Positions 4,101 to 28,653 of a stretch of DNA of 64,000 nucleotides are shown here, one piece after another (positions within the stretch are counted from its first letter, which is position 1; each line of letters starts with the position of its first letter). The stretch lies in assembly GCF_041260155.1 (NCBI RefSeq), contig NW_027248355.1, positions 2,580,078 through 2,644,077 on the forward strand, written 5' to 3'. Below the pieces are notes generated by a model. The model saw nothing but the letters and a program-made list of their open reading frames with translations, was not told the origin of the DNA and ran no database searches. Source of the DNA: Ptychodera flava. Taxonomy: Eukaryota. A program made the position numbers and the translations under genes.

Positions 4101-5049
4101 TATTTTCAATTAAATCGTAAACGTTTTGACTAGTTTATAATATTCAAAATATTGTGTACTAATAACGAATAATGCTAAAGTTTTGGGGATAAATATCTGA
4201 ATTTGTTTTGCAATTGATTTTTTGTTTATTAAGGATACGAAAACTGGAACATTTTCCTGTCTAATTCCCATATAGCTGAACAACAAGAATACATAAAACC
4301 AATTGGAACTAATTTGGGATAATTGGGTCTTCATATTTTGCAAATTTTCTAAAGCGTGTTTTGTGCTCAATAGTTGAGTGTTGAAATATAACAAGTTACT
4401 CTTAAAAACATTACAAGTAAAAAGAAAAGCAGATGAGCTTAAATTTGCAAATTAAACCGACATTACTTCACCATCCAATTATCCCAAATTAGTTCCAATC
4501 TTGTTATAAATAGCTGTGTGTTGAATGACCCTTTTGTATTATTGATGTCATTTTTGTTTCAATTTCTCTAGAAATCTTGTTTGATGGAGACATCATTGGT
4601 TACTACATCTGTGTTACATCTGTATTTTCAGTTCAGTTCTGTGGAATATGTAGACGGAAGGCACCATATTTCATTTATCGTATTTATTGTCATATAATGA
4701 AGGAAAAGCAACTCAACACACCGTTCATATCTTCGTTGTTTGCATTTTGTGTATGATATTGTGTATATTGTAAGTGTATATTATGTTTGGCTGTTTTATA
4801 TAAAGTGTTAATTAGCCATGGCGATTATTCTAGTCGAGAGTAAAACACTAGCACCACTTACAAGTTGGTACCTTATGCTAAAAATACAAGTGAACAAAAT
4901 GACGCCCACGAGGAAAGTTCGTCGGCCGCCCAATTATAAGTTGATGATGCAGTCCAACCTTTCACAGATCAAAATTCATTGACTATTTTCTCAAATAAAT
5001 CGTGAAGAAATAAACAACATACATCAAAGATACGACTGATTTTACACGG

Positions 5050-5760
5050 AAAATTGAGACAATAAAAGTTCCGGCCAATGCGACATTGGTAACACTAGAC
5101 ATTGTTTCAATTTACACTAATACAACGCACAATGAACCAATGGAATCAGTCGACAGAGCATTAAATCAGGAAAGATCATCAAATGATTGCATAATCAAAC
5201 AACCAACAACAAAATACATGATAGCTATGCTGAAAATAATCTTGAAAAACAACACTTTAAGGTCAACAGTGAATTTTACCGTCATGTATTTGGGTGCGGT
5301 ACGAGATCTCCAGTTTCACCAGAAATTCCCGACATTACATTTCACAAGACAAAATGAGAATAATTCAGCAACACACTGAACAAATATCGCTCTGACTGAG
5401 ATTCAGAAACGATGTATGATTCTCATTGGAACTCAACACGAGCTTAATGAATTCATATCAAACATGAAAAAAATGCATCATACTTTCAAATTTTCGAAAG
5501 CTCTTCTCAAGAAATCATATCGTTAGACCTCATTATCTATAAAGGTCATCGGTGGAACAAAGAGGACATTCTCGACTGCAAAACACACACAAAACCAACA
5601 GATACATTGCGGTTCACGAAACCAAACGGCAACATTCAAGGGCCTTGTTAAACGCGAAACATTACGATACATTAGAACAATCATGCAACAACAAGGCAAT
5701 AGAGAATACAAGATATTTTCGAGATAAAAGTAATGAAATGCGATCAAACGATTCTAAATC
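5050..5760 (+). pseudogene. Degenerate reverse-transcriptase fragment, Penelope-like element type (TLDIVSIYTNTTHNEP...; ..LDLIIYKGH....TKPTDTLRFTKPNG), frameshifted and truncated
   Basis: The motifs resemble PLE RT domain 2 (FDVVSLYTNIP) and the C-terminal ...SVYRKPT.T...L.F.S.HP region. It is flanked by ~60 bp inverted repeats at 4775-4835 and 6333-6400. Confidence 0.4.
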
Positions 5761-6879
5761 TTGTTAAATTATTACTAACTTTGGACAATCGGATGACATT
5801 TAAATGTTATTAAATTTTCATTAAATTAATTTCAAATTTCCTTGGAATCGTAAATAGTAAAAGGGAACCAAAACATTTTCAGGTCCCCTATATGCTGATC
5901 AAAATCTCCAAGTACCCCTCTACAATCTCCCAAAATTTTCGATTCCAACCCGAATTCCTCTGCCTCTCACCGTTATTTGTGAGCGTAGCCTAATCACATA
6001 CATAAGAAACGGTAATATAAGCGTTACGATGATGCCAAACTTCACAAAACCTACAACAGTCCGATCTCCGATTCAAATGAGCTTACACAAATACAGCCTG
6101 AACGAACAGTAGACATCCTAGCTTCCGTACTTGAACAAACTGAACTTTCAGTGGAACAACTCGATTGGTAACACCTACAATCATTCAATCAGTGCACATG
6201 TTTCACCAAAAGAAAATGAAGGACTGATGAAGACAACTCAGTACTCTCGAAAGGTAGCATCAAAGGATATCGCAGTGTCACATTAGTCATGCTATCCCAT
6301 AGGGCAGAAACACGTAGATTAGGGTTGCGTCTCGCCATGGCAAATCAACACTATACATAAAACGGCCAAACATAACATAATATACACTTACAATATACAC
6401 ATGTACCGTACACAAAATTCAAACAACTAAGATATGAACGATTTGCGGAGCTGCTTTCTCTTATTACATGTCACCAATTGTGTCTGCTGTCGAATTAATC
6501 TTCCCTGCACAGACCTTTGTTCCTGCCAAGGCAGCGATAACTGTGGCAACCCTTTTACTCATGACAATGCTGGTGAAGAAGAGGATGATGAATTCCTACA
6601 ATTACTAGATTTACTGGAAATGACATGAATGATTTGGATCATAAATCATGCCATTACTTTGACTGTAGCTTACTCTGACACATTGTTTCAGCTACAAAGC
6701 TACATTTCAACAACTTAGTGTCTTTCGTGTGGATCTTTTTGTTGCATTGATACTTAAATTAATTTTTTTAAATACCATTATTAAAAAGAGGAAATATTTA
6801 TTTCGACAGAAATATGAAAATATTTCCGTAAATTAATTCAAATATCACTTTTGATATAAATTTTGTGTTTTACATGCAA

Positions 6880-7810
6880 TTACCATCACCACAGACCATA
6901 TATCACTCGATAGTGTAAAAGTGTGTTTAGAATAGTTAACAATGAATTTTCTAATTTCATATCTCATTTCTGCACATTGCTTACCAGTGTAATTTATGGA
7001 CATAAAGGGGTATGGCCTTCCTTAATAGCTCCACATTGTCAATTTTCTTTAAGTAGAGATAATAAGCTTTCAATGACTTATGATGTGGCTGTATGATAGG
7101 ACTCTATGTGTTAACATTTTCAAAATATTGTTATTCTAAAGGGGAAAATATTTTTTCCATATAAATATGAAAATATTTCAGTGAAATCCATTTCAATATC
7201 TCTTTGAATATTCATTTTGTATTCTACATGTAACTACCTTTCATTTGATATATCACTCAATAGTTTAAACGTATGTTTAGAAAAGTTAACTATAAATTTA
7301 TAATACTATATCGCATTTATGCAAATTGGGTATGCGTGTTTATTATGCAAATTAGGGGGTTATGGCCCGATTTCGTAGCTCCAAATTGTCAATTTTCGTG
7401 AAGTAGAGATAATAAGCTTTCAAATGACGTATGGTGTGGCTGTGTGTTGTTGCTGTATGTGTTCAAATTTTAAAATATTGTTATTCAATACCGGAAAATA
7501 TTGTTTTCCATATAAACATGAAAATATTTCAGTATAATTAATTTCAATATCTCTTTGAATATCCATTTTGTATTTTACATGGAAAGACCTTTCATATGAT
7601 ATATCACTCGATAGTTTAAACGTATCGTTAGAGAAGTTAACAATAAATTTCAAATATTATATCGCATTTATGCAAATTGGGTACCCTTGTTAATTATGCA
7701 AATTAGGAGGTTATGGCCCTACTTGGCAGCTCCACATCGTCAATTTTCTTAAAGTAGAGATAATAAGCTTTCAAATGATGTATGATGTGGCCGTATGTAA
7801 GGTGGGTACA
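6880..7810 (-). repeat. About 2.5 copies of the same ~360 bp satellite in the opposite orientation to 2740-4100
   Basis: Reverse-complement matches are visible (gtattctacatgcaaatacctttcatttgatatatcactc... corresponds to gagtgatatatcaaatgaaaggtatttgcatgtagaatac). Confidence 0.8.
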
Positions 7811-8200
7811 TTAAACTCCTAAAATAAGGCTCTTTTTGTGGATTCGCCGCTCGCCAGTCAAGAGTAGTAACGCTACGCTAGATTAAGAAAAACAGCAAAA
7901 CATTTACTTTGTCGGTAACAGAAGATTTATTCATATGTTTAGAAGATGCAATATCTTAGTCAACTTTGAAAATTCGGAACTTCGCAGTTACCTGATGTGA
8001 TGAAATTCTCTACAATCTAAGGCGGAAAAATTGTAACTTGCATAAGTGTATATTCGTGCCGAATAGAGGTATCAAAATGAAACATTATTTTTCTTCCCGA
8101 TCAGCATAATTATTCTGGTACCTTCCATGTATAAAAGTATGAAGTATGTCTTTTTCATCATCATAGGGCACTGAGATGCTCATCTCAATTCTACATCTTT

Positions 8201-8235
8201 ATGTTCGACATCATCTTGGCGAATTCTGGAGAGTA
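8201..8235 (-). CDS. Calmodulin-like protein gene 1, terminal coding exon (E)FAKMMSNIKM*
   Basis: Acceptor tttcttgtttactctccag| at 8236. The junction codon G+AA gives Glu, restoring EF-hand position 12, followed by a calmodulin-like EFxxMM tail and a TAG at 8201-8203. The identical exon is conserved in gene 2. Confidence 0.55.
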
Positions 8236-8948
8236 AACAAGAAATATTGTACTGTGTTTCAACGCTTGAAATAAATATTCAATGGGCATGGCAGAAGATA
8301 ATTAAGGCCTCCCAGGCTCGGGAAATATTGGAATGAACCAGGACATGTTCAAAGTAGATGTTACACAAATATGTACGAGCGTGAACATTCAAAGATGTTT
8401 ACACCAGACTATTTTGTATAAAGGGTGTTGTTGGGAGAGATTTCTAACATGGGAAAATGCTTCTCTAAAGAGGTGAACTCTCTGATTGTAGCGCTATATA
8501 TCACGTGACATCATATACCAATCATTCTCTGTTTGCGGATATATATTACTCACGTAGGTGGCGACGCCACTCCAAGAAAATTACCCTTTTTTCAAGGGGA
8601 TAGGGTTCTCTGAATGTTTGGCTAGTACGTTTTGACGAAAGGGCAGCACAACTGCTACGCAAGAGTTTTCAAACAACGCATCCTGCAAACTGTACTCTTT
8701 GCTAAACAGTATACATGCATTCACACTGAGAGCTCTCGATTATAAATGTTTATCTTTTAGTTGTGTCTTTCTGAACAAATTATGTCTGTTTCATGATTAT
8801 CATCTTATATTAACTAAAGACAGTGAGCTTGCTAATCTCTTAGAAAACCTCGATAATATCATTTTATATTAAATTCATCCCTAAGGAAAGCACTGTCGTA
8901 TTAAACACATAGTTTAATTGTCAACAGAGTTAACAAAGCAGCACATAC

Positions 8949-9188
8949 CTTCCAATGTTACTTGTCCGTCTTTATCGATATCAGACCTGTTAATCATTTC
9001 TTGGACTTCTTCGTCCGTCATCTTAAAACCAAGTTCAGCCATTGCTTGGCTCATCTCGGAGGCGGTGATGAAACCGTTGCCGTCTTTGTCGAATACGTTG
9101 AAGACTTTGCGGTAGGCTTCGTCTTTGCAGCCACTAAAGCTAAGCGCAGCTCTGGTGAGAAACTCCGGGAATTCGACGGTCCCGCTGC
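8949..9188 (-). CDS. Calmodulin-like protein gene 1, coding exon with EF-hands 3-4 ([79 protein letters not shown])
   Basis: Acceptor ..ggcacag| at 9189 and donor GAAG|GTATGT at 8948. 240 nt, phase 1 at both ends. EF loops [12 protein letters not shown] and [12 protein letters not shown] are completed by the next exon. Confidence 0.65.
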
Positions 9189-10441
9189 CTGTGCCAATGA
9201 AACACAAGAATAATTCTTTTTAAACTCCATAAAATCATATTGAAATGCCAGATTTCCAAATTGACGAGATACTTTAATTGTCAATATTCATTGTAGTCTC
9301 AGACTGTTTGACGAATGGACGTGATTTTGAGTAGAATAGGAAGCTGTTTTTCACAGCGGAAGAGGAAAATGAAAATGTATCTATGTGCAACCCTCATCTT
9401 TATAAGGCAGCATTTCCGGCTTATCGAAGATGTCATGAAAGCCACCTATTACTAAAGTTTTCAAAAACCAGAGAATTTCGTGGGGTGGCAATAGTTTACT
9501 TGAAAAATGAAAGGGTACATACACGGGATGGAAAACCTCAATTTTGGTATAAATAATCAGAATTCAGTCAATATCTTGAAATTCAATGTATCATTTGAAA
9601 CTATACTATATATAGAATTAAGGTATTTTTGTTTCGCATCACCCACTCTCATCAAGACTTGGTTCAACTCTGTGATTTGTAAATGTTTGAGTAGGGTGAA
9701 TGCGATGATTTGTGTTTTGTTTTTATTTGAAACGCGTGATTGGGGTGATAGGAATCAGTCAAATAGGCAGAGACATATGCTAATACATATGTGGGGTGAA
9801 CGCTATACATGGGAGTTTCTCCCGGAATCGCGGTGAAACTGGCAGAAACTAACCCACTACTGCGCAGACTCAAAGGTAACGCGTTCAGTCGCTAGGAAAC
9901 ACTGGCCTGGGCTGCCAAAGTCCAATTAGGTTTGTATGAAATAGGAGAGACACAAGAGAAAAACTTGTACAGATGATTTTATTTTATAGAAATTCAACGA
10001 CTTGAACTTAGTCTAATGTCGCATCTTATATGACAGCGGTTGTAAAAATGTATTTTGGGATTTTCAAAATTTTATCTAGCCACCGTGGAATCCAATTTTA
10101 TTGAGATGTTGAAAAAGGAAGAAATAAGAAGCCAGGTGATTGGGTGATATACCTTAACTTATGTTTACACTTCTTTCTCAGTCAGCTTGCAACTGCTTGT
10201 CATGATAATATATGAACTTAACTTATATTTTAATCTTGGATTAACAAATTTATTAACACTTAACGAATCTTTGCAAAAAAGTGATTTCGTGCAAAATACG
10301 CTGTGTTGCGTTCGACGCCACCTTAAAGTTACAGTTAATGGCGATTATCAATTACAGTTTCTCTAAACAATGTGTATGTATAAAAGACGTTGGAGAACAT
10401 TTGCCAAAGTGATCCGACAACGTTCGTTGTCAAAAACTCAC

Positions 10442-10585
10442 CATCGGCATCCATATCGCCAATCATTGCCTTTATATCGTCTTCTGTCAAATCTGGTCCC
10501 ATATCCTTCAGTACAGCCCACATTTCTGTAACCGTGATTTTCCCATCCCCATCCTTGTCGTAGTGGGCGAACGATTTCTTGATAC
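10442..10585 (-). CDS. Calmodulin-like protein gene 1, coding exon with EF-hands 1-2 (..IKKSFAHYDKDGDGKITVTEMWAVLKDMGPDLTEDDIKAMIGDMDADG)
   Basis: Acceptor ttttatgtcag| at 10586 and donor GATG|GTGAGT at 10441. Canonical EF-hand loops DKDGDGKITVTE and DMDADGSGTVEF (the latter spans the junction). Phase is consistent with the next exon. Confidence 0.65.
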
Positions 10586-10631
10586 CTGACATAAAACATG
10601 TTTTGACAAATCAATAACGTAGCTATATAGA

Positions 10632-10636
<5 letters not shown>

Positions 10637-10694
<58 letters not shown>
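10637..10694. repeat. (CT)n microsatellite upstream of gene 1 exon 2
   Basis: Visible run of ct dinucleotides. Confidence 0.95.
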
Positions 10695-10695
<1 letters not shown>

Positions 10696-13149
10696 CATTT
10701 ACATCTCTCAAGTATAGCTATCCCTTTTCAATTAAAATGGACAATTGAATACCATCAACTTCTTTATATTTTATGTTTGTAAGTCATTTCCAGATGAACG
10801 GATGACGGAAATGTATTTGATTCAAATGTCAGAGGTCAAATATTCTTACTTGTCTGGTCATAAAATTTGTTCAGTATTTCACAATGGCTGTTAATTTGTT
10901 TATGAGTCATGAGTGACATGTTCAGCTTAATTATATATTGGATTCCGTGCCCAGTGTGAGGGCGTTAGGAATTTCCCTTATTCTCAAAGAACACTCAGCA
11001 TAACAATATCAAAGAACGTTGTTACAGTAGTAGTTAGAGATCGATCGTCATATGTTAGGAGTGACAACAAGGTGGAAAGAGATTCGCAGCTATGTCTTTT
11101 GCTGAAAAATAAATTGCAGCCTGATACACTTGCAAAGTAAACCCTTTTGAGCGTTAGGAAAAGGACGACTTTTTGGAGATTTAAAAGTAAGTACGGAAGC
11201 CATTCACATTCCGCAAATATTTGTCGAGCAAAAGTTCGAGGCAAACGATTGTGTCGGTATCCCAGGTGGCTACCGCCATCCTTGATTCAGCCTTAATGCA
11301 TGTGAATACGGTGATTTCTGAGAGTGAAGTTATCGATAACCTTAAGTGACACGACATTGACTGTAATGGTGAGTAGGCCTACTTACGTTCAACGTCTTCG
11401 TCGGCTAGTTTATCAGCCTACAAAAAAATTAAGAAGCGAATATTGTCAACGATCATGAGATCTTTGGGCGGGCGGTAAAGGGGCGGGTTTTCATTCTCTT
11501 TATCTCAACACAAATGGATTACCTTCACACAACTTTCAAAGCAGAACCATGGACTAACATCATGATGCCAATGCCATCAAGTTCTCATACGAGAACACAA
11601 GGGTTAAGGACCGCCGCAGGTTGAATTGCGTATACTCTCGATGGTCCATTATTGTATGAGATACACCGCTGTCCCCCTAATAATTTGAATAAAGTATAGC
11701 ATTTTCCAATGCGTAAATGATTAAGGCATGGAAAAGTACTCACCATCGTTTGCTTCTTCGTCGTTTCAAAACAACAAATAATCAAGTCCGCAAAGGCGGA
11801 AAAACCGGTAATGAGAAGTTAGGGAAGGACGTCCGACTGAAGTTTGTAAAGAGTGCACAAGCAAATTAGGGGCATATTTATGCACTGTATGAATAATTAC
11901 TTATTTTACGACCTGCTTTATTGTTAATTTCATTTGACAGAATAACAGAAATCCTAATGTGTCTATTCAATTTAATAAAATGTCGGAATTTGCATATCAA
12001 TTTGATGTTTCGTGAATTCCATTTGACACGTTAAAAGTAATCTGCGTCCATTGTCATAAAGTAAAGAACGGAATGTGCATGCCCATTCACAAACCCATTA
12101 TCCCTTTCTAAAATAAAAACTGGAATGACAACCATGTTATTTATTTCATGTCGAGTAAGTACAGGGTCAGATAACTACAAAAATGAATATTGATGTTGGG
12201 TAGCTGTAACCTGGAACCGTCGGAACGCCGACCAAGGCAATGCACATGGAACGACAAATGGTTGAGGTCTTTCACTTTCGAGACGCATACTACCTTAAAG
12301 GAGCGGGCATGATATCAGCTTTATCTCTACACTAACTGATTAACAAGGCACAAATTTCAATATAGAAGATAGGATAATTTGTCTATGTCAACAAACACTG
12401 ATGCAAAAACCATGGATTGAGGACCGCCGCTTTCATGACCGTTACTGTAACGTACGCTGTCCAAAAGTCGGTGTTATCCCGTTCTGACACACATACAGAA
12501 AATAACGCAGAGCATGATGTACACAAACTGATGACAGATGTGAGTGATCGTAAAGGATTTAGATACAAAAATAAATTGTTGATTGGTTTGTACACGTAAC
12601 ATGATCATAGGCCAGGGACGTTAATTAACGGCGTCACCAAAAGTCAAAACAAGACTCGTCAGTTAATGCCACCAGATTTTAAAATGTAGATTTAGATGAG
12701 GAATATTTGCCTCGACATTCTGACAATATGTTATCTGAGATTGATCAATACTGTTTCCCTTCTCCTGAACACATACTTTTCACTGACACAAAACTACTTA
12801 TAACACGATTGAAACTAATTTGGGATGATTGAATGGTGAAGTAACGTCAATATAATTTGTAAGTGAAACCTCATCTGCTTTTCTTTTTTAGTTTGATAGA
12901 CACCTGTTTCTATGAGTAATTTGTATGTATTTGTTATGTATTTATGGCATTCATATGTAAATTACCTTGTATTTGTAATTCGTTGACGATTGTTGTGAAA
13001 ATAGCATCGCTCTCAAATAGCGCAAGACTGTATTTCTATAGCAATAATTAGGGCGATTTCCTTCACTAAGAAGATGGCTGTGAACTTTGGGCTTTAGCGT
13101 GTATGCATAGTTATTGTAAAATAAACACAGCATAAGTATATGTCCAAAT

Positions 13150-13960: not shown

Positions 13961-14479
13961 AGAAGGTTGTATTTTGACAAAATTCTCGTAATATCAGGAA
14001 TAAATCTTAGAGAGTTTAGTATCGCCCTCATTAACACATGTGTCTAGGCCACCATAGAAACGAGACATGTTCCTCCTCGCTGTCTTCGGCAGATGTTGTA
14101 CCAACTATCGGAGTTAAACAATTTAACTATTTTTATCTGCCAGTCTTCTAGTTGATATTGATGGTAGAAGTGGCATTGTTAATGACGTTAACACTGGCCC
14201 CGGATGATAGTGATAACAATTGCAAATACAATGACTATGAGGCTGCTGCTGCTGCTGATGATGATGATGATCATGATCATGGTGACAACGTTGATGAAAA
14301 CGATGATTTCTGTGATGAAATTGACCGCAGTGCTTGCATTTCTGTTTTGTACATGAGAACAGAATGAGTACTGGTGGCACTCTCTATGTAAATACTTATT
14401 AAAATAAATTTCATGGAGACGGACAAGTAAGATTTTCATCCCATATTTGCATAACGAATATTTGCATAACGAATATAAA

Positions 14480-15170
14480 TTTTCGAAATACAAATGTTGT
14501 CATTACCTCGGGATCGTTTTGGTATTTTTTGTAAGCAAGCCCCCAAAAAATTAAATTTATAAGGTATGTCTCTTTCCTAGACCCTAAAACGTTTCAGTGC
14601 CTCTGCGTACGCACTCATAGTAATCCTGCTGGTATTTGCAAAGTAGTCAGGCTTGGTTGGATCACCAGTTGTAAGGTACAAGTTCTGATATTTCTCCGAA
14701 GACATCAACTCGTACGCCGAACGTAAGACAGCTTTTGTTTGTTCTTTATCCGACAACATGTCCTCTATGGTCACCATTTTATAATCTGCAGATCTGTTCA
14801 TACAAGTAGCTTAAGCTGATATCAGCCTGCTACACGGACAATATCGATAGAAAGCAGTCGGGCCCAATCTCCGCGCAGAGATTGGAGCGAGGCGAGGACA
14901 ATCATAACCTAGCTAGGGAGTTTGAACGATGGCCGTACCCGCCCAGTAAATGACCCGGTGACTCTCTCTGGCTAGGTTAGAATTATCCACGCCAATACAA
15001 TCTGTGTGTAGAGATTGCAGTGGGCCTCTGAAAAATTGCAATTCGAAAGAGCCTCGGATTCTTCTTTCAGGAAGGTGCTCGTTGGAACTGTGGTTATGAG
15101 ACTTCTTTGTTCGCAAACAATGTAAATGGTACGTCAACGTGGCTGCAACATTTAAACTTTGTGATGTACA
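14480..15170. repeat. Copy b (part 1) of the dispersed duplication (paralog of 1-700)
   Basis: See the 1-700 feature. Confidence 0.8.
14508..14801 (-). pseudogene. Paralogous copy of the 49-342 exon carrying a frameshift in an A/T run (stop after ...EALKRFRV); the donor GAG|GTAATG is retained
   Basis: Alignment with copy a shows mostly nonsynonymous differences plus a frame disruption near 14560. Confidence 0.4.
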
Positions 15171-16026
15171 CAATGGCAAATGACAAGCATGTCTTTTAAC
15201 CTTCATTAATCATGAACGTACCTTGGATACAGTGTTTACATTAGTCGTGTGGGTCCCATACTACCTTTGAGCGCAGTTCAGACAATTCCATTCCTTCAAA
15301 TAGAGAGATTGTGATTTCTTTTTAGGTTCGTTTTATTGCTCGACTCTCTGATGTCCATTGTTTGCACTTTTTAGCCAAAGATACATTTAAAATGTATACA
15401 TTTATTGGTCATTTCATTCATTGGTGTGACTATACAGTGCAATTTTTCCCACGTAACTGGTTTTTAGATTTTGTTTTTTTATGCTTGTTTCACTACTTTT
15501 TTTCCCCAAATAAAACAATGATATCAAGCGAAGAATAAGAAGCATAAGCAATACTGTTTGGACATGAAAAAATGTTAAAATCATTAACAAAGATGATTTT
15601 TGATTCTGCAATATGTCAATCAAGGGCTCTTCAGTCCTGGCGTATGTTTGTAAATTCCAGACTTTTACTTTTCCCCCATAGAGCTATTTACAAAGAGATG
15701 GCGGCCATTTTGAATTCCATATATTGGTAAAAGATGGGTTGTGTTTGTTTTTCTGGTACAAATTTGCCTGATGACACCTGATTTTTATTGTTCTTGATTT
15801 CAAAAGGGAGAGGTTTTAAGTTTCCTCACAGAAAGTTTGAACAAAATTTAAAGGCATGTACATCAAACCCCACTTATCGACAACGGCGGTTGAGTAAACC
15901 TTGCAAGCCCCCTCTACCCCCTCCCCCATCTACTACCCCCACAATTTTCGAACCCCTGAATTCCGCCACCCCCTGACTGTGTTTTCTGAACGCAGCTTTA
16001 ATAAGAAATGTCTTTGTTTTTGACAG

Positions 16027-16027
16027 G

Positions 16028-16065
<38 letters not shown>
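16027..16065. repeat. (GATA)n microsatellite; a second block at 17485-17530 flanks the TIR element
   Basis: Visible gatagata runs on both sides of the element. Confidence 0.95.
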
Positions 16066-17484
16066 CAGAGTTCGCGTTTACGCAAAAATCGTGCGTATTT
16101 ACGCATTGAAATTGACTCTCTACGCATTTTTTCATCGTTATGCGTTTTCTATACGCAAAGGATAACACCGAAAGCACTCCCCACGACTGAGCTTAGGCGA
16201 CATCCAGACGAAATTTGTGGCAACACATTTCTGTCAATCACTCATGTTGTGTGGAAAGTTTCGGATTCTCTGGGCGTTGTCTGAAAAATCGGCATCGTAG
16301 TCCACACGTTATCACGTTAGGCATGTTATCATGTCAGCTGTGCCTATGAATTACGTTGCTAATTTTCAGGCGAGCGATAGTTTCTGAAAGTGAGTGATTG
16401 ACAGAAATGTTGCGACAAATTATATAAATGCCGACCGTGCACGATCATCGCGTCTCGCTATTCCCAAATTTTGATCAAGCACACATGCAGCATGGCGTCG
16501 AAGCAGACAAATCTGTTTTCTTTCAACTTTGCTCTACGAGTCCGTGAAAAAAATGATTCATCGGTAGAGCTCGTCGGAATCCCGATAAATTTTGAACACT
16601 GCAGAAGTGTCTGGATGGTAACTGGTCGTTCAGGCACCAAGTTGTTTCGGCCCAAGTCGTTTCGGCCTCTCAATTTCCGGCCAAAGTCACTTCGGCACTG
16701 CAACCCAAGACGTTTCGGCATCTGTTTTTCGATTTTTTTTTTCAAACTATTCAGTAATTGACTGATCCGTCATATTTGTAAGCGTGACCTTTGCGTTCTG
16801 ACCAGTCCTTTATGTGCATTTTGTGTGAATTTTGCCGTGCTGTTTCGTCACCGCTTTCAAACTTTTGCCGTGTAGGCGGCTATTGATATCGATAAACTTG
16901 TGTCACAGATTTGAAAATGATATGAAGTTTTTTCTTACGGTCTCTTCCCATGTTCTCACAAAGATTAAGCATGTACGTGAATGTTAGTTGACACTATACT
17001 TTTTAGTACTTTGATTTGTAACATTACGCTCCAGCACTAGTTCCCACAGGTAGCCTTCAGCGGTGCCGAAACGTCTTGGGTTGCGGTGCCGAAACGTCGG
17101 ACTTGGGGCCTGAAATTCAAAGGCCGAAACGTCTTGGGCCGAAACGACTTGGTGCCGAAACGTCCAGACACCGTCTAGATAAGCTGCCATAACTCTAACT
17201 TTTGGGTTGCCCAATGTGTTTTGACGGTCGCATGTATAACCTTCACTGTTACGTTTCAACATTGTTCAAGTTGTTCGTTAAACTGTTTTCATTAAAATAA
17301 TGTTACATCGTACAATCCGAATATGTAGTGTAGGTTTATTCAACGGCACATTGTATTTTGCAGTCAGTTTTTTCATCAATCGAGTGCGGAAGTGAAATTA
17401 CGCACTCAAATCCAGCCATTACGCAATTTTAGCAGACTAATGCGTATGCCGTACGCGAGGAGAAAAAAGTCACCGCGAACACTG
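16066..17484. mobile_element. Non-autonomous hAT-like TIR DNA transposon (~1.42 kb) inserted in the (GATA)n repeat; terminal inverted repeats CAGAGTTCGCG / CGCGAACACTG
   Basis: 11-bp TIRs (10/11) with CAGNG-type termini. Subterminal TACGCA/TGCGTA repeats occur at both ends. A large internal inverted repeat (16610-16745 vs 17045-17175, ..ggcaccaagttgtttcggcccaagtcgtttcgg.. / ..ccgaaacgacttggtgccgaaacg..) is present, and there is no long ORF. The element is absent from the paralogous copy a (680-1330). Confidence 0.6.
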
Positions 17485-17494
17485 TAGATAGATG

Positions 17495-17540
<46 letters not shown>

Positions 17541-17544
17541 CCGT

Positions 17545-18350
17545 TTCTTAATTACTACCGCTAATAAATATAGTATGAAGTCGGCTAGGTCAATGGACTG
17601 GGACAGCTACCTTGATCACTTGACCACTCTGTGATTGGGGTTTATGAATAGTGACTGGTGGACTAATCGGCGTGGTGACCTCATCAAAGGATTAAATCAG
17701 TCGGTCAACATTTCACGATATACTAATGACGAGACAAAAGACACTTCATCAGCTAATGAATATGCTGGCATCGATATCACTGCTGTGTGGTTTATCAATT
17801 TTCCTGCATAATTTTTTAAACGTGGAATTTTCTACAACTTTCACGACAAATTGCGTTATCCAACCATTTTTAAACCGGATTTGTCAAGGTGAAAAACAGT
17901 TCCAGGTCAGTTTCAGTCAAGTGATGACAATAGTATGCAAGCCCGCCAAGTGATCAAAAATGTTTTAGCGAAAATATGATACTTATAAAGTAATGGATGA
18001 TTAATTTTCAGACTAGTTAAACCAAAGTAGATCATTCAAGAACTTAGTATGTGACTTAATCTGAAACATTTGTGGTGTGAATTACATTCTAGAACGTCAT
18101 TATTTCATATAAGTGTGACTTCCAACTATCTTGTTTTTCAGCGCTGTAGATTTATAAGAATATATACTTCTGAAAATGAGCAATAAAAAAAAACAATAAA
18201 AGCCAAATTTACCGCTGCAAGTTACTAAATACTAAGGCGTGTTCTATGAGGAGTGTTCATTTAGTATTGCTCTTGTTTCTTACAATCAGCTGATTTTATT
18301 CAGTGTCATTTAATTAAAATTTAGCATAAAGTGCGTTTAAGGTAAAGGGC
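17545..18350. repeat. Copy b (part 2) of the dispersed duplication (paralog of 1330-2700)
   Basis: See the 1330-2700 feature. Confidence 0.75.
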
Positions 18351-19505
18351 GACTAATTCGGACGCGCACACGCTTTAGAACGTTTCTGCGTAGATTTAAC
18401 TCAGGCCTGCCGCAAATGGGTTATTTTGTTGCGCATGTATTTAACATCACCTGTCAATGTTGAAATTGCACTTTTACCTAATTTTTTGACCCAGTCTCTT
18501 AGAAATACATGTGACCTTTAACCTTGTCATATTTTGATCCCCTAGGAAGCTGGTTTTTATTCATATGAGCGCAAAATTAACATTTCTCTCCCATTTACAT
18601 GGCGCATATTACCCATTCACCTGGAGATATTGTAAAAAGTAGCTTGGTGACACCCTTTTATTAAAGGTGTAAACTAAATGGTATTATGTTAGGATTTTAT
18701 TCGCCAAGTTTGGTCAAAATGACACCATTCAAAGCGAAAGGAAGTAAGTTCGAAAATTATGTAGTGATATAATTTCGATGTCGTCAGTTTGTAATCGATA
18801 CTTATGTTAAAATTTCTTTACAAACATCATGAAAACTATACATTCGATAGATATGGATCTTAATTCTTGGTATTGATTAAAATTAATTCATTTGCTAAGC
18901 GTATTATGATTGCTTTCTTTAGTTTATGTGAATTATATCATTTTTACTTATTTCAACGACGCCATTTTAACGTCCGTTTCCATGGAAACGAGCGTGGTGA
19001 CTCCCATTTTTTATTTCATTTTTGCACTTGCACAACTTCCAAGAATATTTGACTGTGCAATGTTTCAAGAAAATGACACCACAACCTAATTTTGACGTAA
19101 TTCGTAGTACTTCACCTTAACTCCCATATTTTAAATATCACCGTTTTGAAGGAATACAAGCCAAGAGTCTTAAATCTAGATTAAATAAAAACAAAACAAA
19201 CCATTTACTTTGTTGATAACAGAAGATTTATTCATATGTTTAGAAGATGCAGCATCTTAGTCAACTTCGAACATTCCAATATTTAGCAGTTCAATGATGT
19301 GACGAAATTCTCCAAATTTTGAAAAAAATTGTTGTTGGCATGAGTGAATTTTTGTGCTGAATAGAGATATATCAAAATGAAACATAATAATTGTACTTCC
19401 CGATCAAACATCAACATACTTATTCAATTCAGAAACCTCCCATGTATAAAAGTATCAAGCATGTGCTCTTCATCATCACAGGACACTCAGTAACTCATCA
19501 CAATT

Positions 19506-19540
19506 CTACGGCTTTATGTTCGACATCATCTTGGCGAATT
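19506..19540 (-). CDS. Calmodulin-like protein gene 2, terminal exon (E)FAKMMSNIKP*
   Basis: Acceptor ..tttcttgtttactccccag| at 19541. The sequence is conserved with the gene 1 terminal exon, with stop TAG at 19506-19508. Confidence 0.55.
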
Positions 19541-20243
19541 CTGGGGAGTAAACAAGAAATATTAATTTTGCAGTGTTTCAACGCGTGAAGAAAAGATGCA
19601 ATTGGTGTGGCAGAAAATTATGTAGCCTTCCCAGGCTGGTGAAATTTGATTGGAATGAACCAGGACATGTTCAATGTGGATGTGGAACAAATATATGTAC
19701 GCAGTGAACATTCAAAGATGTTTACATCAGACTACTCTCTGAAAAGGGTGTTGTTGGGAGAAATTTGTACGAAGAAAAAAGGCTCTCCAAAGAGGGGAAT
19801 TAATTGACTGTGGTGCTTCCTATATCTGACTTGACATCATATACCAATTATCCTCTGTATATGAATGTGTACTACTAACATAGGTAATAAAGCCACTACA
19901 AGAAAATTACCGTTTTTTTGAAAGGGACAGATTTCTCTGAATGTTTGGCTTGTAATTTTTAACAAAAGTCAACGTAACTGCTACTCAAGAGTTTTCAAAC
20001 AACACATCCTGTAAACTGTCCACTTCGGTAAACAGTGTACATGCATTCAGATTGAGTGCCCTTGATTATAAATGTTCGTCTTTAAGTTGCATTTTTCTGA
20101 ACTAAATTATGTCTGTTGAATGGTTACCATCCGATATAAACTAAAAACAAACGTAAATGTAATTTTATATTTAATTAATCCCTGGGAAAAGTACCGTCAA
20201 ATTAAACACATAATTTAATTGTTAACAGAGAAAAGTACCATAC

Positions 20244-20483
20244 CGTCGAATTTAACTTGTCCGTCTTTATCGATATCATACTTTTTGATCATTTCTTCGA
20301 CTTCTTCGTCCGTCATCTTCAGATCGAAACCAGCCAACACTTCACGCAACTCGGAGGCGGTGATGAAACCGTTTCCGTCTTTGTCGAATACATTGAAAGC
20401 TGCGAGGTACCCTTCGGTTTTACTGCCACTAAAGAATAGCGCTGCTCTGGTGAGATATTCCGGGAATTCGATGGTCCCACTGC
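20244..20483 (-). CDS. Calmodulin-like protein gene 2, exon with EF-hands 3-4 ([79 protein letters not shown])
   Basis: Acceptor ..ggcatag| at 20484 and donor GACG|GTATGG at 20243. 240 nt, as in gene 1. Confidence 0.65.
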
Positions 20484-21363
20484 CTATGCCAATAAAACAA
20501 AAGAATAATTTTTTCCAACTCCCTAAAACCATGTTGATATGCCAGATTTCCGATTTGACAAGATACTTTAGTTGTCGACATTCATTGTAGTCTCAGACTG
20601 TTCGACGAACGGACGTGATATTTAGACGTGATAAGAAGCTGTTTTTCACAGCGGAACAGAAAATGAAAATGTATCTATATGCAGCCTACATCTTTATAAG
20701 GCAACATTTCCAATCGGAGATGACATGAAAACCCCCTCATACTAATTTTTAAAATCCAAAGAATCTTAAGTTTAGTACTGTGGCAATAGTTTACTAGAAA
20801 ATTAAAAGGGGTACACACACGGGATAGAAAACCCCAATTTTAGTATCAATGATCAAAATTAAGTCAAACTTAATATTCCTACTCTCCAAAATTTAAAGTA
20901 AATAGAAATTATATGTAGAAATTTGCATTTACCTGTTCTCATACTAAATGACAGGGGTTGTAAAAATGTATTGTGAGAATTTCACAAAATTTGATCGAGC
21001 CAGCGTGAAAGTCAATTTTATTGAAATATTGAAAGAGGAAGAAATAAGAAGCCATCGGGTGATACGTATGCCTTTGCGTAAGTTTACACTTCTTTCTCAG
21101 CCAACTTTCGACTGCTTGTGATGATGATATATGAACTAAACCTGTATTTTAATCTTTGATTAAGAAATAATTAAAACTGAACGAATGTTTGCAAAAAAGC
21201 GATTTTGCGCAAACACGATGTGTTGCATTCGACGCCACCTTGAAGTTGCAGTTAATGACAAATACCAATTACAGTCTCTCTACTCTATAACAAAGTGTAT
21301 GTATGAAAGACGAGGGAGAACCTTTCCAAAGTAATCCGACAACGTTCGTTATCAAAAACTCAC

Positions 21364-21507
21364 CATCGGCATCCTGGTTGGCAATCATTGCCTTAATTTC
21401 GTCTTCTGTCAAACTTGGTCTCCATTCCTTCATAATAGTTTCCATTTCCGTAAACGTGATTTTTCCGTTCCCATCCTTGTCGTATGAATCGAACGTTGAC
21501 TTGATAT
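21364..21507 (-). CDS. Calmodulin-like protein gene 2, exon with EF-hands 1-2 (..IKSTFDSYDKDGNGKITFTEMETIMKEWRPSLTEDEIKAMIANQDADG)
   Basis: Acceptor ttttatttcag| at 21508 and donor GATG|GTGAGT at 21363. Same length (144 nt) and phase as the gene 1 exon. Confidence 0.65.
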
Positions 21508-21544
21508 CTGAAATAAAACATGTTTGACAAATCAATAACGTAGC

Positions 21545-21682
<138 letters not shown>

Positions 21683-22845
21683 CACATCTTTCAAGTAGAG
21701 CTACGCCTTTTCAGTTACAATGAACATTACTGCAAACTTCTTTACATTTTATGTTTTACATCGTTTCCAGATAACCGGATGAAGATACATTTATTTGATT
21801 CAAATCTCAGTGGTCAAATATTCTTACCTAACTGGTCTTAATAAACTTTGTTTCAAAATTTCACAATGGCTGTTTATTTGTTTATGGGCCATGAGTGGAA
21901 TTCTCAGCTCAGATATATATTGGATTCCGTGCCCAGTGTGAGGGCATCAGGGGTTTTCCTGTCTCGTTTAGCATTCAGAGAAGACTAAGCGAACTATCAA
22001 AGAACGTTGTTACAGTAGTAGCTAGAGATCGATTATATTTTAGAAAGAGTGACAAAAAGGTGGAAAACGATTCGCAGCTAATTTCTTTGCTTAACAAGTT
22101 GCAGTCTGATACTCTTGCAAAGTAAATCCATCTGGGAGTTAGGAATGTCTGAGTGTGAAGTATGGATAATCATAAATGACACGATATTGACGTCAGTGGT
22201 GTGTACTTACATTTAAGGTATGGTTTAGGCAGTTTATCAGCCTACAAAATAATAAAACGAGAATATTATCAATAGTCAGTAGATCTTTGGCAGGCGATAA
22301 AGGGCTGGGTTTTATAATTAGATTTATCTCTATACAAATGGATTAACTTCACACAACTTTCAATGTAGAACCACAGACAAACATCACGTTAATAACCATT
22401 GCTATTAACGTAAAAATTGCCGAAAACGTGCAATATTGCCATTCTTTCAATAACATTAACAATTTAGCTGACGACCTATTGAAAAGGGTGTGGCATTCTG
22501 AAAAGAAAGAAGGTAGACCCCGCCCCACTCCTAGCCGTTCCTAAACCAATCCAAAAATTGTCAAGGGTCGCAAAGCAAAAAAGCTGTTTTTTGCATGTTC
22601 AATATCCCTTGCAACTAAAGATCGACTTCAGATCTTTTTGTAAAGTATGGAGTTTCAAGAAGCTCCGTCTTATTTCCTTTATGAAGGAAACCGTAAACCG
22701 ACAAAAGTTGATGTCACGCCAACCAGCTTTAAGTAGCAAAACAGACAAACATGGAAATCATAAACCAGGGCCTGTACCGGTCATCCTCACCACAAAATCA
22801 TTGAAGAAGCCCTGCAATAAGAAAATAAGAAACTCTCTAATATAT

Positions 22846-23461
22846 TGTAACGAAATCCTCTGAATTACCAGAAATACCATGAAAGTCAACACCTGATAAA
22901 ATACGTGAGGACAATTCTCTCAGAAATCTGTAGTGTGGTAACGTGAACGGGCTTCTGAATGACGTCCGGCACTGAGATGTTCGACTTGTGCGTGGACAGA
23001 ACACGCACGTATAAAACTGGGTCTAGAGAGGCGACTGAACGCACGCCTTGACTCAGGCGAAACCAACAACAAAGAGAACCTGAGAAAACTAACTTGGTAT
23101 ACCTGTAAATCTGGCACCTTAGCCTCACGGAGGCTTACTAAGAGTAGCAAGAAGTATGATTTAACGCAAAATAGAAGGAAATAGAGGTAGCCAAGAGGTT
23201 AGATCAGGACAGCACAGACATGCACTGCTCACTGCAGGACGGCTACCTCCAGAGTGTCCCAGCCGGGGGATGGGTTGCCTATGGTTACCATGGACATGTG
23301 ACTAAAACCCCGCCCCTAATTTGGTGACTGACATACACGGGAACGCCCCATCTGAAAATCAGGGATATTGCCTATTTTCTCAACCACCTGCAAATTCAAA
23401 GTAGGGACCCATCCGCACCAACGGGCTCCAAGGGCGATTTTGTGTCCAGTATTTCATGACA
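22846..23461 (-). repeat. 3' LTR of the gypsy element
   Basis: Same as above; it starts TGTAACG and ends ...TTTCATGACA. Confidence 0.9.
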
Positions 23462-24877
23462 ACTCCCCCCGCCTAGACCTGTGCATGTCCTCATGCACAA
23501 TGGTTGTTAAAGAAGATCTTGTCATTTTCCCTTACTGATCCAACCGCAAGGCTATCAAGAGTATTTAACCCTCCTGTCGTGTCAAAAATTAAATCTGAAG
23601 AATATGTCTTGTCAATAACGTTACAGAACATAACTGTGGATACCACATACTTCTGTAGGTAGAGAGCTCGTAGTCCAGTCAGTCGACATTGTCATTCAAT
23701 AAAAAACAGCCATATCACAATGGAAATGCAAACACAAGGAGTACCCCCTTGAACTGAAATAAGAGTTATCATTGGTCTTTGCATGTCTTTTAATCAATGA
23801 TTACTTGCTACCCTAAGCATTCAAGGAGAAAGTAAATTAAGCATTTGCTGCATGGGCGTTATCCGGCAACACTTTTGACTTGCGTCTGGGTCCGCTTGAC
23901 ATAGCCTTTCCCTATGCCGTATACAACCCGACAACAATCACTAAAACCTTAGCCCACTGCAAACCCACAGCTCAAAACAATTAATTTTCTAATGTAATCT
24001 GTCCCCATTATTTTTTTTTCTTTTTTAAATTTTTTTTCATTTTTTTTATGTTTGTTTTCGTTAATTTTCATTAAGGGTATAATTCACTGTCAATCAATAT
24101 TTGTCGATTGTCGGGAAGAAAAATGATAAACGATGATCTCTCATCAACTAGTCACGGTGATCCCATACCACTACTTTTGGAATCACGTGACTGTGTGAAA
24201 CTGTGAACTATACTGAATATACATGTGTGGCTATATAACTTGCACACCACCAATGGAGCTCTCGTTTGTCAACCCTCTCCATGCTTGTTTTACGGCCCTT
24301 GACAGTCTACTAAAACCATAGTGATCCACTGCTTTTCTGTTTCTTCTTGGGTACCTATTGCTACTGTTTAGCTCCTCAGACTTGTAATCATTAAGGTTAT
24401 GAGGATTTTCCATGGGCATTTCATTATCACATTTTTGACCAACTTCCTTATCACCTTGCAGATTATTAAAACTTTTTCCTTTATCTATATCATTTGTACT
24501 CTTATTTTCATTATGGTCATTTTTCAGGTCGTTCCCTTCTAATTTACCAGTATCAGTCGGAATATCTGACCCAAGGTTGCCGTCAATTGACTGATCATTT
24601 ACGTAATCCAAGACATCATCAAATTTATCCTCAATCAAAGGTTTGAAAACCTGACTTTCACTATCTTCTCCTGCTTTAGCATGAGCAGCATTTTTAGGTT
24701 TGCCAACCTGTATACGCTCGTCCACGGGTATAGATTTCACTCTGTCCAACCAAGGATCCAGAGCTTTCCCCTAATACCGTTTCAATTTTTCTTGATGTAC
24801 TATCTTAGCTTTCCTTCTTGGGCTGAGTTGTATCCGTACACAAGGTCAGACACTTTACCGATGACCAGATACGGCCC

Positions 24878-27094
24878 CTAATAGGCCAACTGTAATTTGG
24901 GAGCATAGCCTTTCCTCCTCCTCTCATCTTTTAACCAAACGAATTCTCCCACCTTATAGTTATAAGTAGTCGCAAAACGATCGTACAGACGTTTCTGTTG
25001 GCGAGCAGTGACTTTCAATTGCTCTCTTGCATGTGCATGTGCTTGTTCTAATTTATCCCTTAAATTGGCCACATACTCAGAGCTAACCTCCCCTTCAGGT
25101 ATGTCTACAGGTACCAATGCCATATCCAATGGGTAGTGCAACTCTCTCCCTAACATCATCATGTTAGGAGTTTCTCCTGTAGATGGGTGTACACTACTGC
25201 GGTATGCAAAGGTGGCTAAACTGATGTTCTCGTCCCAGTCAGTTTGGTGTTGCAAGGGGTCCATATAAGCTCTAATATAGCGTACAACTGTGTGGTTAAA
25301 ACGCTCCACCTGCCCGTCACTCTGCAGGTGGCGTGGCGTGGTAAATGTCTTGTTAACCCCAAGCAAATCACACACTTCTTTGAATACATTGGAAACGAAG
25401 TTCCGGCCAAGGTCACTGTGACATTCGAGAGGCATACCAAACCGACTGAGAAAGTTGCCAAGCAACACCTTTGCAACCGTAGGAGCCTCCTCATTGGGAA
25501 TGGGGTAAGCTTCCATCCACTTGGTGAAGTAATCACCAAGTACCAAAATCTTTTTATTACCCCTGCTACTCTCGGGAAAGGGTCCCACTACATCAATTGC
25601 TATACGTTCAAGGGGTGCTCCGACAACGTAGGTCTTTAGTGGCGCCCTCCTTTTCCCTGTGATTAGTTTATTTTTAGCACATACATCACATTTTCGAATA
25701 TGACTCCGCACGTCCACAGACATCCCAAACCAAAAGTACTTGAGCCTGATTTTCGCGAGGGTTCGGCCAATACCTGCATGGCCTCCAAACTTGCTATCAT
25801 GAAATGTCTCTAACACAAGGGGTATGAAGGCCTTTGGCAAGATGATCTGCCACCTTACCATTCTTCCGTCAGCTGCTTCCCAAAGCTTATATAGTATTCC
25901 ATTATGTACCCTGAGTTGGGAGTATTGGGACCAATAGGTTTTGAGGGCTGGTGATCTATGGGAAATGTCCTCCCACGCTGGTCGAGTTTCACCACTCTCC
26001 ACCATCCTCATTATCAAACCTATATTTGAGTCTTCCAATTGTTGCTCCCTTAACTCAGCCATTGACCACAATACCTCATGCTCAATGTTTCTTTCGCTAT
26101 CTAAGCTAAGTTCCGCCTCCTGTTGCTCGGGCTGAGCAACAGGGGACTTCGTGGTTACCTTATGTACATCACACCTATGTGGATGGAGGCGTCCCTCCAT
26201 CCTAGGCCACCCATCAATCGAGTGATTGGGATTTTTCTCCACCTTGGAAGACTTTTTGCTGTTCTCAGCAATCTTGGCAGTAGAAGAGTCTTGCTGTGCT
26301 GTTTCGCATGACTCAAACTCTGACCGATTAGTTACCCTTGCGTTAATGTGTGTGTCTTTGTGATGCTCTCTACCACATTGCTTACAGTACTCGACTGGTA
26401 CACGACTCAGAGCATCTGCATTCAGATGCTTCTTACCAGGCCTATGTTCTATCTTAAATTTGTACTGACCTAAAAGTTCTATCCAGCGGGCTAATTGCCC
26501 CTCAGGGTTCTTAAACCGCAATAACCAGACCAACGAGGCATGATCTGTCCGAATTGTAAACTCTCTACCGAGCAAGTAGTGTCTAAAATATTTCACGTAT
26601 TCCACATCCGCTAACAGTTCTTTTCGTGTTACGCAATAATTTCTTTCGGTTTTACCTAGGACCTTGCTCGCATAACAGATGGGTCGTTCTACCCCCTCAT
26701 GCATTTGACTCAGTACAGCACCTATACCGACTTTGCTAGCATCCGTATCTAGGATGAAATCTCCTTCTGCAGACGGGAAGGCCAATACTGGCGAGGTTGT
26801 TAATATTTGCTTGAGTCGATCAAAAGCGTCTTGGCATTCAGATGACCAGATAAAATGAGCATTTTTCTTGGTCAGCTCATTGAGTGGTTTTGCTATAGAA
26901 GCAAAGTCTTTTATGAACCGTCTGTAGTAAGATGCCAATCCGTAAAAACTGCGCACCTCTGATACGGTGGTTGGCACCGGCCAGTTGCAAATAGATGCAA
27001 TTTTCTTGGGGTCAATGGAAACGCCCTCTTTTGAAAATCTGTGGCCCAAAAACTCGACCTGCTCGGCAAAAAGCACACATTTCTTTGCTTTCAA
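24878..27094 (-). CDS. pol segment: RT thumb, RNase H (..YASKVLGKTERNYCVTRKELLA..) and integrase (HHCC finger H..H..CDVCAKNK, then DDE core ..LGDYFTKW..SDLGRNF..QSDGQVER)
   Basis: 738-aa ORF with these motifs. The integrase C-terminus (GPYLVIGK..) continues in another frame, and a further 172-aa ORF lies at 24231-24749. Confidence 0.85.
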   Translation of the reverse strand: MKAKKCVLFAEQVEFLGHRFSKEGVSIDPKKIASICNWPVPTTVSEVRSFYGLASYYRRFIKDFASIAKPLNELTKKNAHFIWSSECQDAFDRLKQILTTSPVLAFPSAEGDFILDTDASKVGIGAVLSQMHEGVERPICYASKVLGKTERNYCVTRKELLADVEYVKYFRHYLLGREFTIRTDHASLVWLLRFKNPEGQLARWIELLGQYKFKIEHRPGKKHLNADALSRVPVEYCKQCGREHHKDTHINARVTNRSEFESCETAQQDSSTAKIAENSKKSSKVEKNPNHSIDGWPRMEGRLHPHRCDVHKVTTKSPVAQPEQQEAELSLDSERNIEHEVLWSMAELREQQLEDSNIGLIMRMVESGETRPAWEDISHRSPALKTYWSQYSQLRVHNGILYKLWEAADGRMVRWQIILPKAFIPLVLETFHDSKFGGHAGIGRTLAKIRLKYFWFGMSVDVRSHIRKCDVCAKNKLITGKRRAPLKTYVVGAPLERIAIDVVGPFPESSRGNKKILVLGDYFTKWMEAYPIPNEEAPTVAKVLLGNFLSRFGMPLECHSDLGRNFVSNVFKEVCDLLGVNKTFTTPRHLQSDGQVERFNHTVVRYIRAYMDPLQHQTDWDENISLATFAYRSSVHPSTGETPNMMMLGRELHYPLDMALVPVDIPEGEVSSEYVANLRDKLEQAHAHAREQLKVTARQQKRLYDRFATTYNYKVGEFVWLKDERRRKGYAPKLQLAY

Positions 27095-27300
27095 TTACAA
27101 CCCAGCTCCCTTCAGTTTATCAAACACCAACTGCAGTCGGTTTAGCTCTTCCTCAAATGAACTAGCAAAAGCAATCAAGTCATCCAGATACAATAAACAA
27201 ATTTCCCATTACAAATCGTAAAATACCTTCTCCATTAATTTTTGAAATGTGCCGATACCCATGGGCATAACTGTCCATTTCAGAAGTCTACCAGATGGCG

Positions 27301-28653
27301 TCATGATTGCCATTTCTTTCTGCTTGCCTCATCCAGAGCAACCTGATAAAAGCCGCTACAAAGGTCAAGGCAACTGAAAAAGCGTGCTCCACCCAGACTT
27401 TCCAAATTGTCTTGTATACGGGGCAAAGGATAAGCGTTTACAAGGGTTACTGCATTCAGACGACGGAAATCACAAACCAGACGAAATGAGGAATCTTTCT
27501 TAGCTACAAGTAGACATGGGCTGCTCCATGGGGAATCACTTTCTACCAACAGCCCCTTGTCAACAAATGTTTGTATCTGCTTATCAATCTCTGCTTTCTT
27601 CCAAAATGGAGCACGATATGGAAGTGATTTTATGGGTTTCTCAGTTGTCGTCGGGATATGATGTTCCACTACATGTGTCTTCCCCAAATCTGTCGGGTCT
27701 TTGCTGAAGACATCAGCATTCTTAACCAACAAATCAAATACTGACTGCCTTTGTTTATCTGAAGTTAAGTGTTGGACACTGCATTCATATAGATCCCTTT
27801 GATAGTCAGGCATTATGCCACTTTGGCCAGCAGTTATTTTATTGACTGACGGAGGTATTGTGTGCTCACTATGTTTACCCAAAGCAGGGGAGGACTCGAT
27901 ATCAAAATTAACAGTTTTGTCCATTCTTAACAAACCCAAACACTGTCCTTTTTTAACCTCGATGTCTTGGTTACTGAGATTTATAACCCGCACGGCGTGT
28001 AATTTACTTCCCACTTGACTGAGGGACCCTGCCCCCATTAGTCCTACTTTATTCAACTGCACTGGTGTCACCAAAGCTGTTATTTCCGAGAAGTTATTCT
28101 CGATATCATAACCTAACGTACCACCTGATTTTTCACTTTTACAAAACTGTCGACCCCCATACAAGTTGTAACCAAATTCAGCGACGCGAGGGGTTCTACT
28201 CATACGAGACATGATAATGGCTTCATGCCCGGCCGGAACAGATTCAGCCCAGTTTGCTTGCAACCGACAACAGAAAGGTTTTACATCTTCGTGAACAGTT
28301 TCCACAAGTTTGTTTCCTACCATTACTGTACCGTTTTGGAGGTCTAAACAACAATCAAATTCCCTTAAAAGATTCATACCCAGAATGCCCGCAGATCCAT
28401 TCAAAGATTCGGCTATTAAGATGGGTACGACACCTTGCCTGCCCCCTATTTCTGCTTTGATTAAAGCTTCACCCCATAGAGATACCCTGGACCCGTCCAC
28501 CTGTATTAAACATGTACCAGAATCTGTCACCTGAGGGCGTTCATTCTTTGGAATAAGTTCGAAAAAATCTTTAGATATTACGCTGTGTGTTGAACCAGTG
28601 TCGACAAGACACTTTTGTGTTACTCCCTGAAAAGTGACATCAACCAGTAACAT
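27301..28653 (-). CDS. pol segment: aspartic protease (LVDTGSTHSVIS) and the N-terminal part of RT (..FFSCLDLCSGFYQVALDE..)
   Basis: Both the DTGS motif and the RT motif of gypsy-type RTs are present. The frame breaks at ~27300, and the following ~200 nt (YLDD region) contain two in-frame TAA codons. Confidence 0.8.
   Translation of the reverse strand: MLLVDVTFQGVTQKCLVDTGSTHSVISKDFFELIPKNERPQVTDSGTCLIQVDGSRVSLWGEALIKAEIGGRQGVVPILIAESLNGSAGILGMNLLREFDCCLDLQNGTVMVGNKLVETVHEDVKPFCCRLQANWAESVPAGHEAIIMSRMSRTPRVAEFGYNLYGGRQFCKSEKSGGTLGYDIENNFSEITALVTPVQLNKVGLMGAGSLSQVGSKLHAVRVINLSNQDIEVKKGQCLGLLRMDKTVNFDIESSPALGKHSEHTIPPSVNKITAGQSGIMPDYQRDLYECSVQHLTSDKQRQSVFDLLVKNADVFSKDPTDLGKTHVVEHHIPTTTEKPIKSLPYRAPFWKKAEIDKQIQTFVDKGLLVESDSPWSSPCLLVAKKDSSFRLVCDFRRLNAVTLVNAYPLPRIQDNLESLGGARFFSCLDLCSGFYQVALDEASRKKWQS

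Follow-up and report, generated by a model that had tools for sequence, protein, structure and literature searches.

The segment at 16066-17484 is probably a non-autonomous DNA transposon of the cut-and-paste type (class II) and would have inserted into a (GATA)n microsatellite that already existed. Within the window, the whole 64,000-nucleotide stretch of DNA analysed here, this complex segment of 1,419 bp splits a (GATA)n array into two half-arrays that run in the same orientation, and its terminal inverted repeats directly abut both halves of the microsatellite at the exact borders. We infer its mobility from these junctions, from motif clusters that approximately mirror each other near the two ends, and from the restoration of the array phase on excision. 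The parts of the element and its immediate flanks are as follows.

16066-17484, + strand: whole element, 1,419 bp, non-coding.
16028-16065, + strand: left (TAGA/GATA)n half-array, (TAGA)9.5, 9.5 units, 100% pure.
17485-17538, + strand: right (TAGA/GATA)n half-array, (TAGA)13.5, 13.5 units, with one impure unit (GATG) adjoining the element.
16066-16076, + strand: left terminal inverted repeat, CAGAGTTCGCG.
17474-17484, + strand: right terminal inverted repeat, CGCGAACACTG, with reverse complement CAGTGTTCGCG.
16079-16157, + strand: left subterminal cluster of TACGCA/TGCGTA, six cores by motif mapping.
17399-17457, + strand: right subterminal cluster, with cores TACGCA, TACGCA, TGCGTA and TACGCG.

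The original prediction described CAGNG-type termini with microsatellite sequence on both sides, and both are present, the termini at 16066-16076 and 17474-17484 and the half-arrays at 16028-16065 and 17485-17538. Comparison of CAGAGTTCGCG with CGCGAACACTG gives complementarity at 10 of 11 positions, the tips differing at position 4, such that the left tip reads CAGAG and the right tip CAGTG. With the base composition of the window, the probability of complementarity at 10 or more of 11 positions at that fixed location is ~1.4e-5. When position is ignored, ~0.9 chance matches to CAGWGTTCGCG with at most one mismatch are expected per window; the two ends of the element are the only such matches in the 64 kb and are oppositely oriented. 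The similarity of the ends spans 11-13 bp, or 15 of 18 positions once the flanking TA is counted. This TA is palindromic and so lengthens the inverted repeat even if it is not part of the element, and as such the true ends may lie up to 1-2 bp further out.

The microsatellite context limits how the target-site duplication can be read. Since slippage adds or removes whole 4-bp units, the phase of each half-array relative to the element tips is preserved. We enumerated candidate ends and duplication lengths. For CAG...CTG ends, the duplications that fit are TA, present at 16064-16065 and 17485-17486, TAGATA, and a 10-bp duplication with one mismatch. Removal of the element together with TA, or with TAGATA, rejoins the GATA array in phase. 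From the array phase we infer that the duplication for the canonical tips has a length of 2 mod 4. The original prediction of an 8-bp duplication masked within the microsatellite does not appear to agree with the termini that it described, as the 8-mers flanking those tips, GATAGATA and TAGATAGA, are identical at only 4 of 8 positions and are out of register, and 2 or 6 bp fits instead. If the ends are taken as ACAG...CTGT, with one extra base per side, AGAT fits, and AGATAGAT is a perfect 8-mer duplication.

This in-phase interruption of the microsatellite is better evidence for insertion than comparison with the paralogous segment. Self-comparison of the window identifies an old tandem segmental duplication, in which copy a (1-12263) and copy b (14459-32658) are 74-89% identical in blocks. 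Positions 1-680 of copy a align with 14459-15154 of copy b, and 1339-1773 with 17550-17985, and homology is lost between these blocks, over 681-1338 in copy a (658 bp) and 15155-17549 in copy b (2,395 bp), two stretches that cannot be aligned. Copy a does lack the element, as had been proposed, but it also lacks the microsatellite and ~870 bp to the left of it. The absence of the element from the paralogue is thus borne out by the alignment of the two copies, but its proposed use as support for insertion is not, because the 2.4-kb difference does not isolate the element and copy a does not offer a clean empty site. We also considered whether the private 658 bp of copy a (681-1338) is related to the element or its left flank, and rejected this since the sequences do not align; the one 11-nt word that they have in common, CGCAAAAATCG, is at chance level (~0.45 expected).

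The duplicated segments contain the first exons of a tandemly duplicated gene, at 14577-14801 (- strand) in copy b and at 1-~330 (- strand) in copy a, encoding MVTIEDxLSDKEQTKAVLRSAYELMSSEKYQNLY.... The element and its microsatellite lie ~1.3 kb upstream of the start codon of copy b. The open reading frame of copy b ends earlier than that of copy a, which may mean that copy b is a pseudogene or that its intron is positioned differently. Copies a and b differ by several transposon-sized insertions and deletions, and copy b is interrupted by an LTR retrotransposon.

The second line of evidence is the organisation of the subterminal regions. Clusters of TACGCA/TGCGTA had been described near both ends, and mapping confirmed six cores on the left and four on the right, all within ~90 bp of the tips. 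Eight of the 29 TACGCA sites of the window fall in 16079-16157 and 17399-17446, where ~0.06 would be expected, and the enrichment is ~100-fold in the left and right subterminal zones of ~80 bp and ~60 bp respectively. The left cores start 14, 27, 35, 56, 76 and 87 nt from the tip, with those at 14, 35, 56 and 76 following a period of ~21 bp, and the right cores (TACGCA, TACGCA, TGCGTA and TACGCG) start 81, 60, 39 and 28 nt from the tip, and are mostly 21 bp apart. The distances of the cores from the left and right tips are close to mirror images (27/28, 35/39, 56/60 and 76/81), with orientations that are mixed and not strictly mirrored. Each end also carries a pair of cores, TGCGTA..TACGCA on the left (27-40 nt from the tip) and CGCGTA..TACGCA on the right (28-44 nt from the tip). 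A step of 21 bp corresponds to two helical turns, and this phasing would line the sites up along the same face of the helix, an arrangement that would be suited to cooperative binding by a multimer.

The element itself has no coding capacity. Scanned in all six frames against Pfam, it gave no match at E <= 1; all of its open reading frames are shorter than 100 aa, and the longest, of 96 aa, had no homologues among 5.8 billion proteins. This fits the expectation for a deletion derivative. An origin as a tRNA-derived SINE is unlikely because an Rfam scan of 14000-19000 and an ARAGORN tRNA scan of the whole window both returned nothing. At 16494-16565 (+ strand) there is a short ATG-started frame, MASKQTNLFSFNF..., in which a PCNA-interaction-like motif (QxxLxxF) is partially present; a possible GT splice donor comes after the frame. 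Speculatively, and judging from sequence features, this frame might be the leftover first exon of the transposase of the parent element; database searches gave no support for this.

By its architecture, the element appears most like members of the hAT superfamily. The hAT tip consensus is YARNG, which both CAGAG and CAGTG fit, and hobo and Hermes begin with CAGAG; in its CAGNG tips the element is like the Ds-like deletion derivatives of hAT families (hobo, Hermes and Ac-type), and its size of ~1.4 kb without an open reading frame is similarly like that of non-autonomous hAT elements. hAT transposases carry an N-terminal BED zinc finger that binds asymmetric subterminal repeats. In Hermes, the short subterminal repeats to which the BED domains bind differ in arrangement between the two ends, and a quasi-palindromic pair of repeats lies beside the terminal repeat (PMC10368747). 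The element resembles Hermes in that multiple short repeats lie near its tips, in either orientation and with a different layout at each end; these are putative transposase binding sites. hAT elements have short inverted repeats of 10-25 bp, a range that includes the 11 bp found here, and 8-bp target duplications (PMC3942097), and in this last respect the element appears to differ, an 8-bp duplication being out of register with its CAG...CTG tips. Therefore, of the hAT-like TIR element in a (GATA)n array that was originally predicted, the TIR transposon stands, whereas the hAT assignment comes down to architecture, from which the label is plausible, short of established membership. We consider it close to an even chance, if slightly under, that the element belongs to hAT, of either the 8-bp or the 6-bp type, and rather unlikely that it belongs to another or an unknown superfamily.

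If the element is a non-autonomous cut-and-paste transposon, a transposase encoded elsewhere in the genome would move it in trans. The recognition sites of such an enzyme would be the 11-bp terminal inverted repeats together with the phased TACGCA/TGCGTA motifs of the subterminal regions. By analogy with elements that have been studied, it would bind these subterminal motifs and synapse both ends, after which cleavage at the tips and integration through a staggered cut would duplicate a few bases of the target.

The junctions are also compatible with a non-autonomous element of the Tc1/mariner or pogo type that integrated at the TA of a GATA unit with duplication of this TA, which we regard as a possible but doubtful origin. 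With CAG...CTG ends both flanks are TA, and excision with one TA restores the phase of the (GATA)n array. Since TA is the sole possible Tc1/mariner target within a GATA unit, the observed junction is what such an insertion would be expected to produce, and the right tip, TA-CAGTG, matches the Tc1/Tc3-type terminus. However, the left tip is CAGAG and not CAGT, and the ends are alike over only 11-13 bp, whereas the binding sites of Tc1/mariner transposases normally give inverted repeats of at least 20 bp. Short repeats of both orientations are also numerous near the tips, which is typical of hAT, P or CACTA-like ends and not of Tc1/mariner. A TA duplication is present but not exclusively indicated, as a 6-bp duplication fits the identical register, and inverted repeats of at least 20 bp with TA-CAGT tips are not found.

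The interior of the element raises the separate matter of whether it is a single unit. It contains two further inverted repeats, whose arms are as follows.

16212-16244, + strand: left arm of the short internal inverted repeat, 33 nt, 91% identity, with 20 nt perfect.
16391-16421, + strand: right arm of the short internal inverted repeat, partner of 16212-16244.
16610-16720, + strand: left arm of the long internal inverted repeat, with four ~15-bp subrepeats (CCAAGNCGTTTCGGC).
17064-17179, + strand: right arm of the long internal inverted repeat, 83.6% identity over 116 bp.

An internal inverted repeat of 130 bp had been predicted, and the long repeat accounts for its presence but not for its length, which is 116 bp at 83.6% identity. 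The arms are separated by a 343-bp loop, and each carries four of the ~15-bp subrepeats (CCAAGNCGTTTCGGC). It is unlikely, on balance, that the element is a composite in which the 573 bp at 16607-17179, with their 116-bp arms, form a separate foldback or MITE-like element nested in the outer one. The long inverted repeat, with its 15-bp subrepeats, has a very strong fold (folding z-score -18), and just before its left arm, at 16594-16601, lies an internal GAACACTG, a copy of the last 8 nt of the right terminus, for which the estimated chance of a match of this type inside the element is ~2%. This internal copy may be the trace of an older end or of a composite origin. However, the arms are not flanked by a target duplication (CAGAA versus CCGTC), they are 16% diverged from one another, and the subrepeat is absent from the rest of the window. 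The element as a whole is not a foldback element, as its long inverted arms (16610-16720 and 17064-17179) lie well inside it and are not its termini: it is like FB-like elements in having long inverted arms made of short tandem subrepeats, and unlike them in that the arms start ~540 bp from the left tip and end ~300 bp from the right tip. Nor is it a MITE in the strict sense (under ~800 bp and of high copy number), being 1,419 bp long and the sole copy in 64 kb.

The 6-bp register also allows a more specific hAT assignment. A TAGATA duplication would still be consistent with hAT because hAT5 and hAT6, groups with 5-bp and 6-bp duplications respectively, exist within an animal hAT lineage (PMC12730594), those with 6-bp duplications being ascribed to Kapitonov and Jurka 2007 as cited in PMC12730594. 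Membership of the hAT6 subgroup would agree with the hAT-like architecture of the element and with the perfect TAGATA/TAGATA match at the canonical CAG...CTG ends. However, in a 4-bp repeat any length of 2 mod 4 fits equally well, and as such the length cannot be fixed inside the array and the match carries little information; hAT6 is, moreover, a minority group, and we consider this specific assignment improbable. Of comparably low probability is an undescribed lineage of TIR elements in enteropneust hemichordates, defined by CAGNG tips, 21-bp-phased TACGCA sites and a duplication other than 8 bp (TA or 6 bp). The TACGCA motif with 21-bp phasing was not matched to any described family.

It is very improbable that the segment was never mobile and that its inverted repeat is a coincidence in a rearranged, indel-rich spacer between GATA arrays that expanded independently or grew from a short duplicated motif, for although the segment is single-copy in the 64-kb window, the whole of 15155-17549 in copy b is unalignable to its paralogue, implying a complex regional history, and about one terminal match is expected per window when position is ignored, the two matches are inverted and lie exactly at both microsatellite borders (P ~1e-5), the subterminal motif arrays are independent of them, highly enriched and mirrored, and excision restores the phase of the array.

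Searches for further copies of the element were negative within their scope. A blastn search of 15900-17700, comprising the element and its flanks, identified no second copy in the 64-kb window. This single occurrence counts against the transposon reading, as a transposon family is defined by its repetitiveness. The terminal-repeat pattern gave one match in viral contigs, confined to the 20-nt pattern, and in metagenome contigs the strict pattern gave none and a relaxed pattern 89, none longer than 20 nt and approximately the number expected by chance for a pattern of that length. These viral and metagenome matches are of chance length (19-20 nt). A search of the literature for the terminal-repeat sequence as a string returned only unrelated primers and oligonucleotides.

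The window is rich in transposons, including a Gypsy LTR element and an integrase-like open reading frame. The former, at 22900-31148 (- strand), is a Ty3/Gypsy LTR retrotransposon with LTRs of ~565 bp (22900-23462 and 30584-31148) that are 98.8% identical, and with protease/reverse transcriptase and RNaseH/integrase open reading frames; it looks like a recent insertion. The latter, at 62228-63607 (+ strand), is an intact open reading frame of 459 aa with an rva_4 integrase core domain. It has 1,511 relatives at a threshold of E <= 1e-20, of which the best with a name, from the coral Oculina patagonica, is 64% identical, and it probably represents a transposon-like gene that is widespread among marine invertebrates. 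A dispersed repeat with the motif ATGGCGGCCATTTTGAA occurs at ~70-77% identity at 15647-15851, 40374-40572 (- strand) and 58332-58404 (- strand), and the first of these copies lies within the private stretch of copy b just left of the microsatellite. Tandem repeats are represented by two arrays of a ~351-bp unit at 2758-4113 and 6759-7814, which are mutually inverted with ~78-81% identity, and by a 48-bp minisatellite at 58451-59315 (18 copies, 93% identity) that contains spurious long open reading frames on both strands. Two long (AT)n arrays, at 45611-45681 and 46936-47015 and ~1.3 kb apart, appear as inverted repeats because they are self-complementary. The host gene content of the window includes exons of a FkbM-type methyltransferase-like gene on the - strand (51254-50943, 47965-47828 and 46650-46534, and possibly 57342-57124), whose closest match is a Ptychodera flava protein (85% identity), ahead of a second P. 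flava paralogue (79%) and a Saccoglossus protein (65%). These identities point to a ptychoderid acorn worm, an enteropneust hemichordate, as the origin of the window.

The element is a real and ordinary feature of this genome, one of several transposon-sized differences between the gene copies that have accumulated since their duplication. Because the element lies in a 4-bp microsatellite, its target duplication is ambiguous, yet the phase of the array still constrains its length, and this constraint to 2 mod 4 argues against an unchecked assumption of an 8-bp hAT duplication. If the improbable case of an undescribed hemichordate lineage were true, the element would represent either a group in hemichordates akin to hAT6 or a hybrid architecture that has yet to be catalogued. 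The value of the finding is otherwise mainly one of annotation, adding one more non-autonomous DNA transposon to a repeat-rich invertebrate genome.
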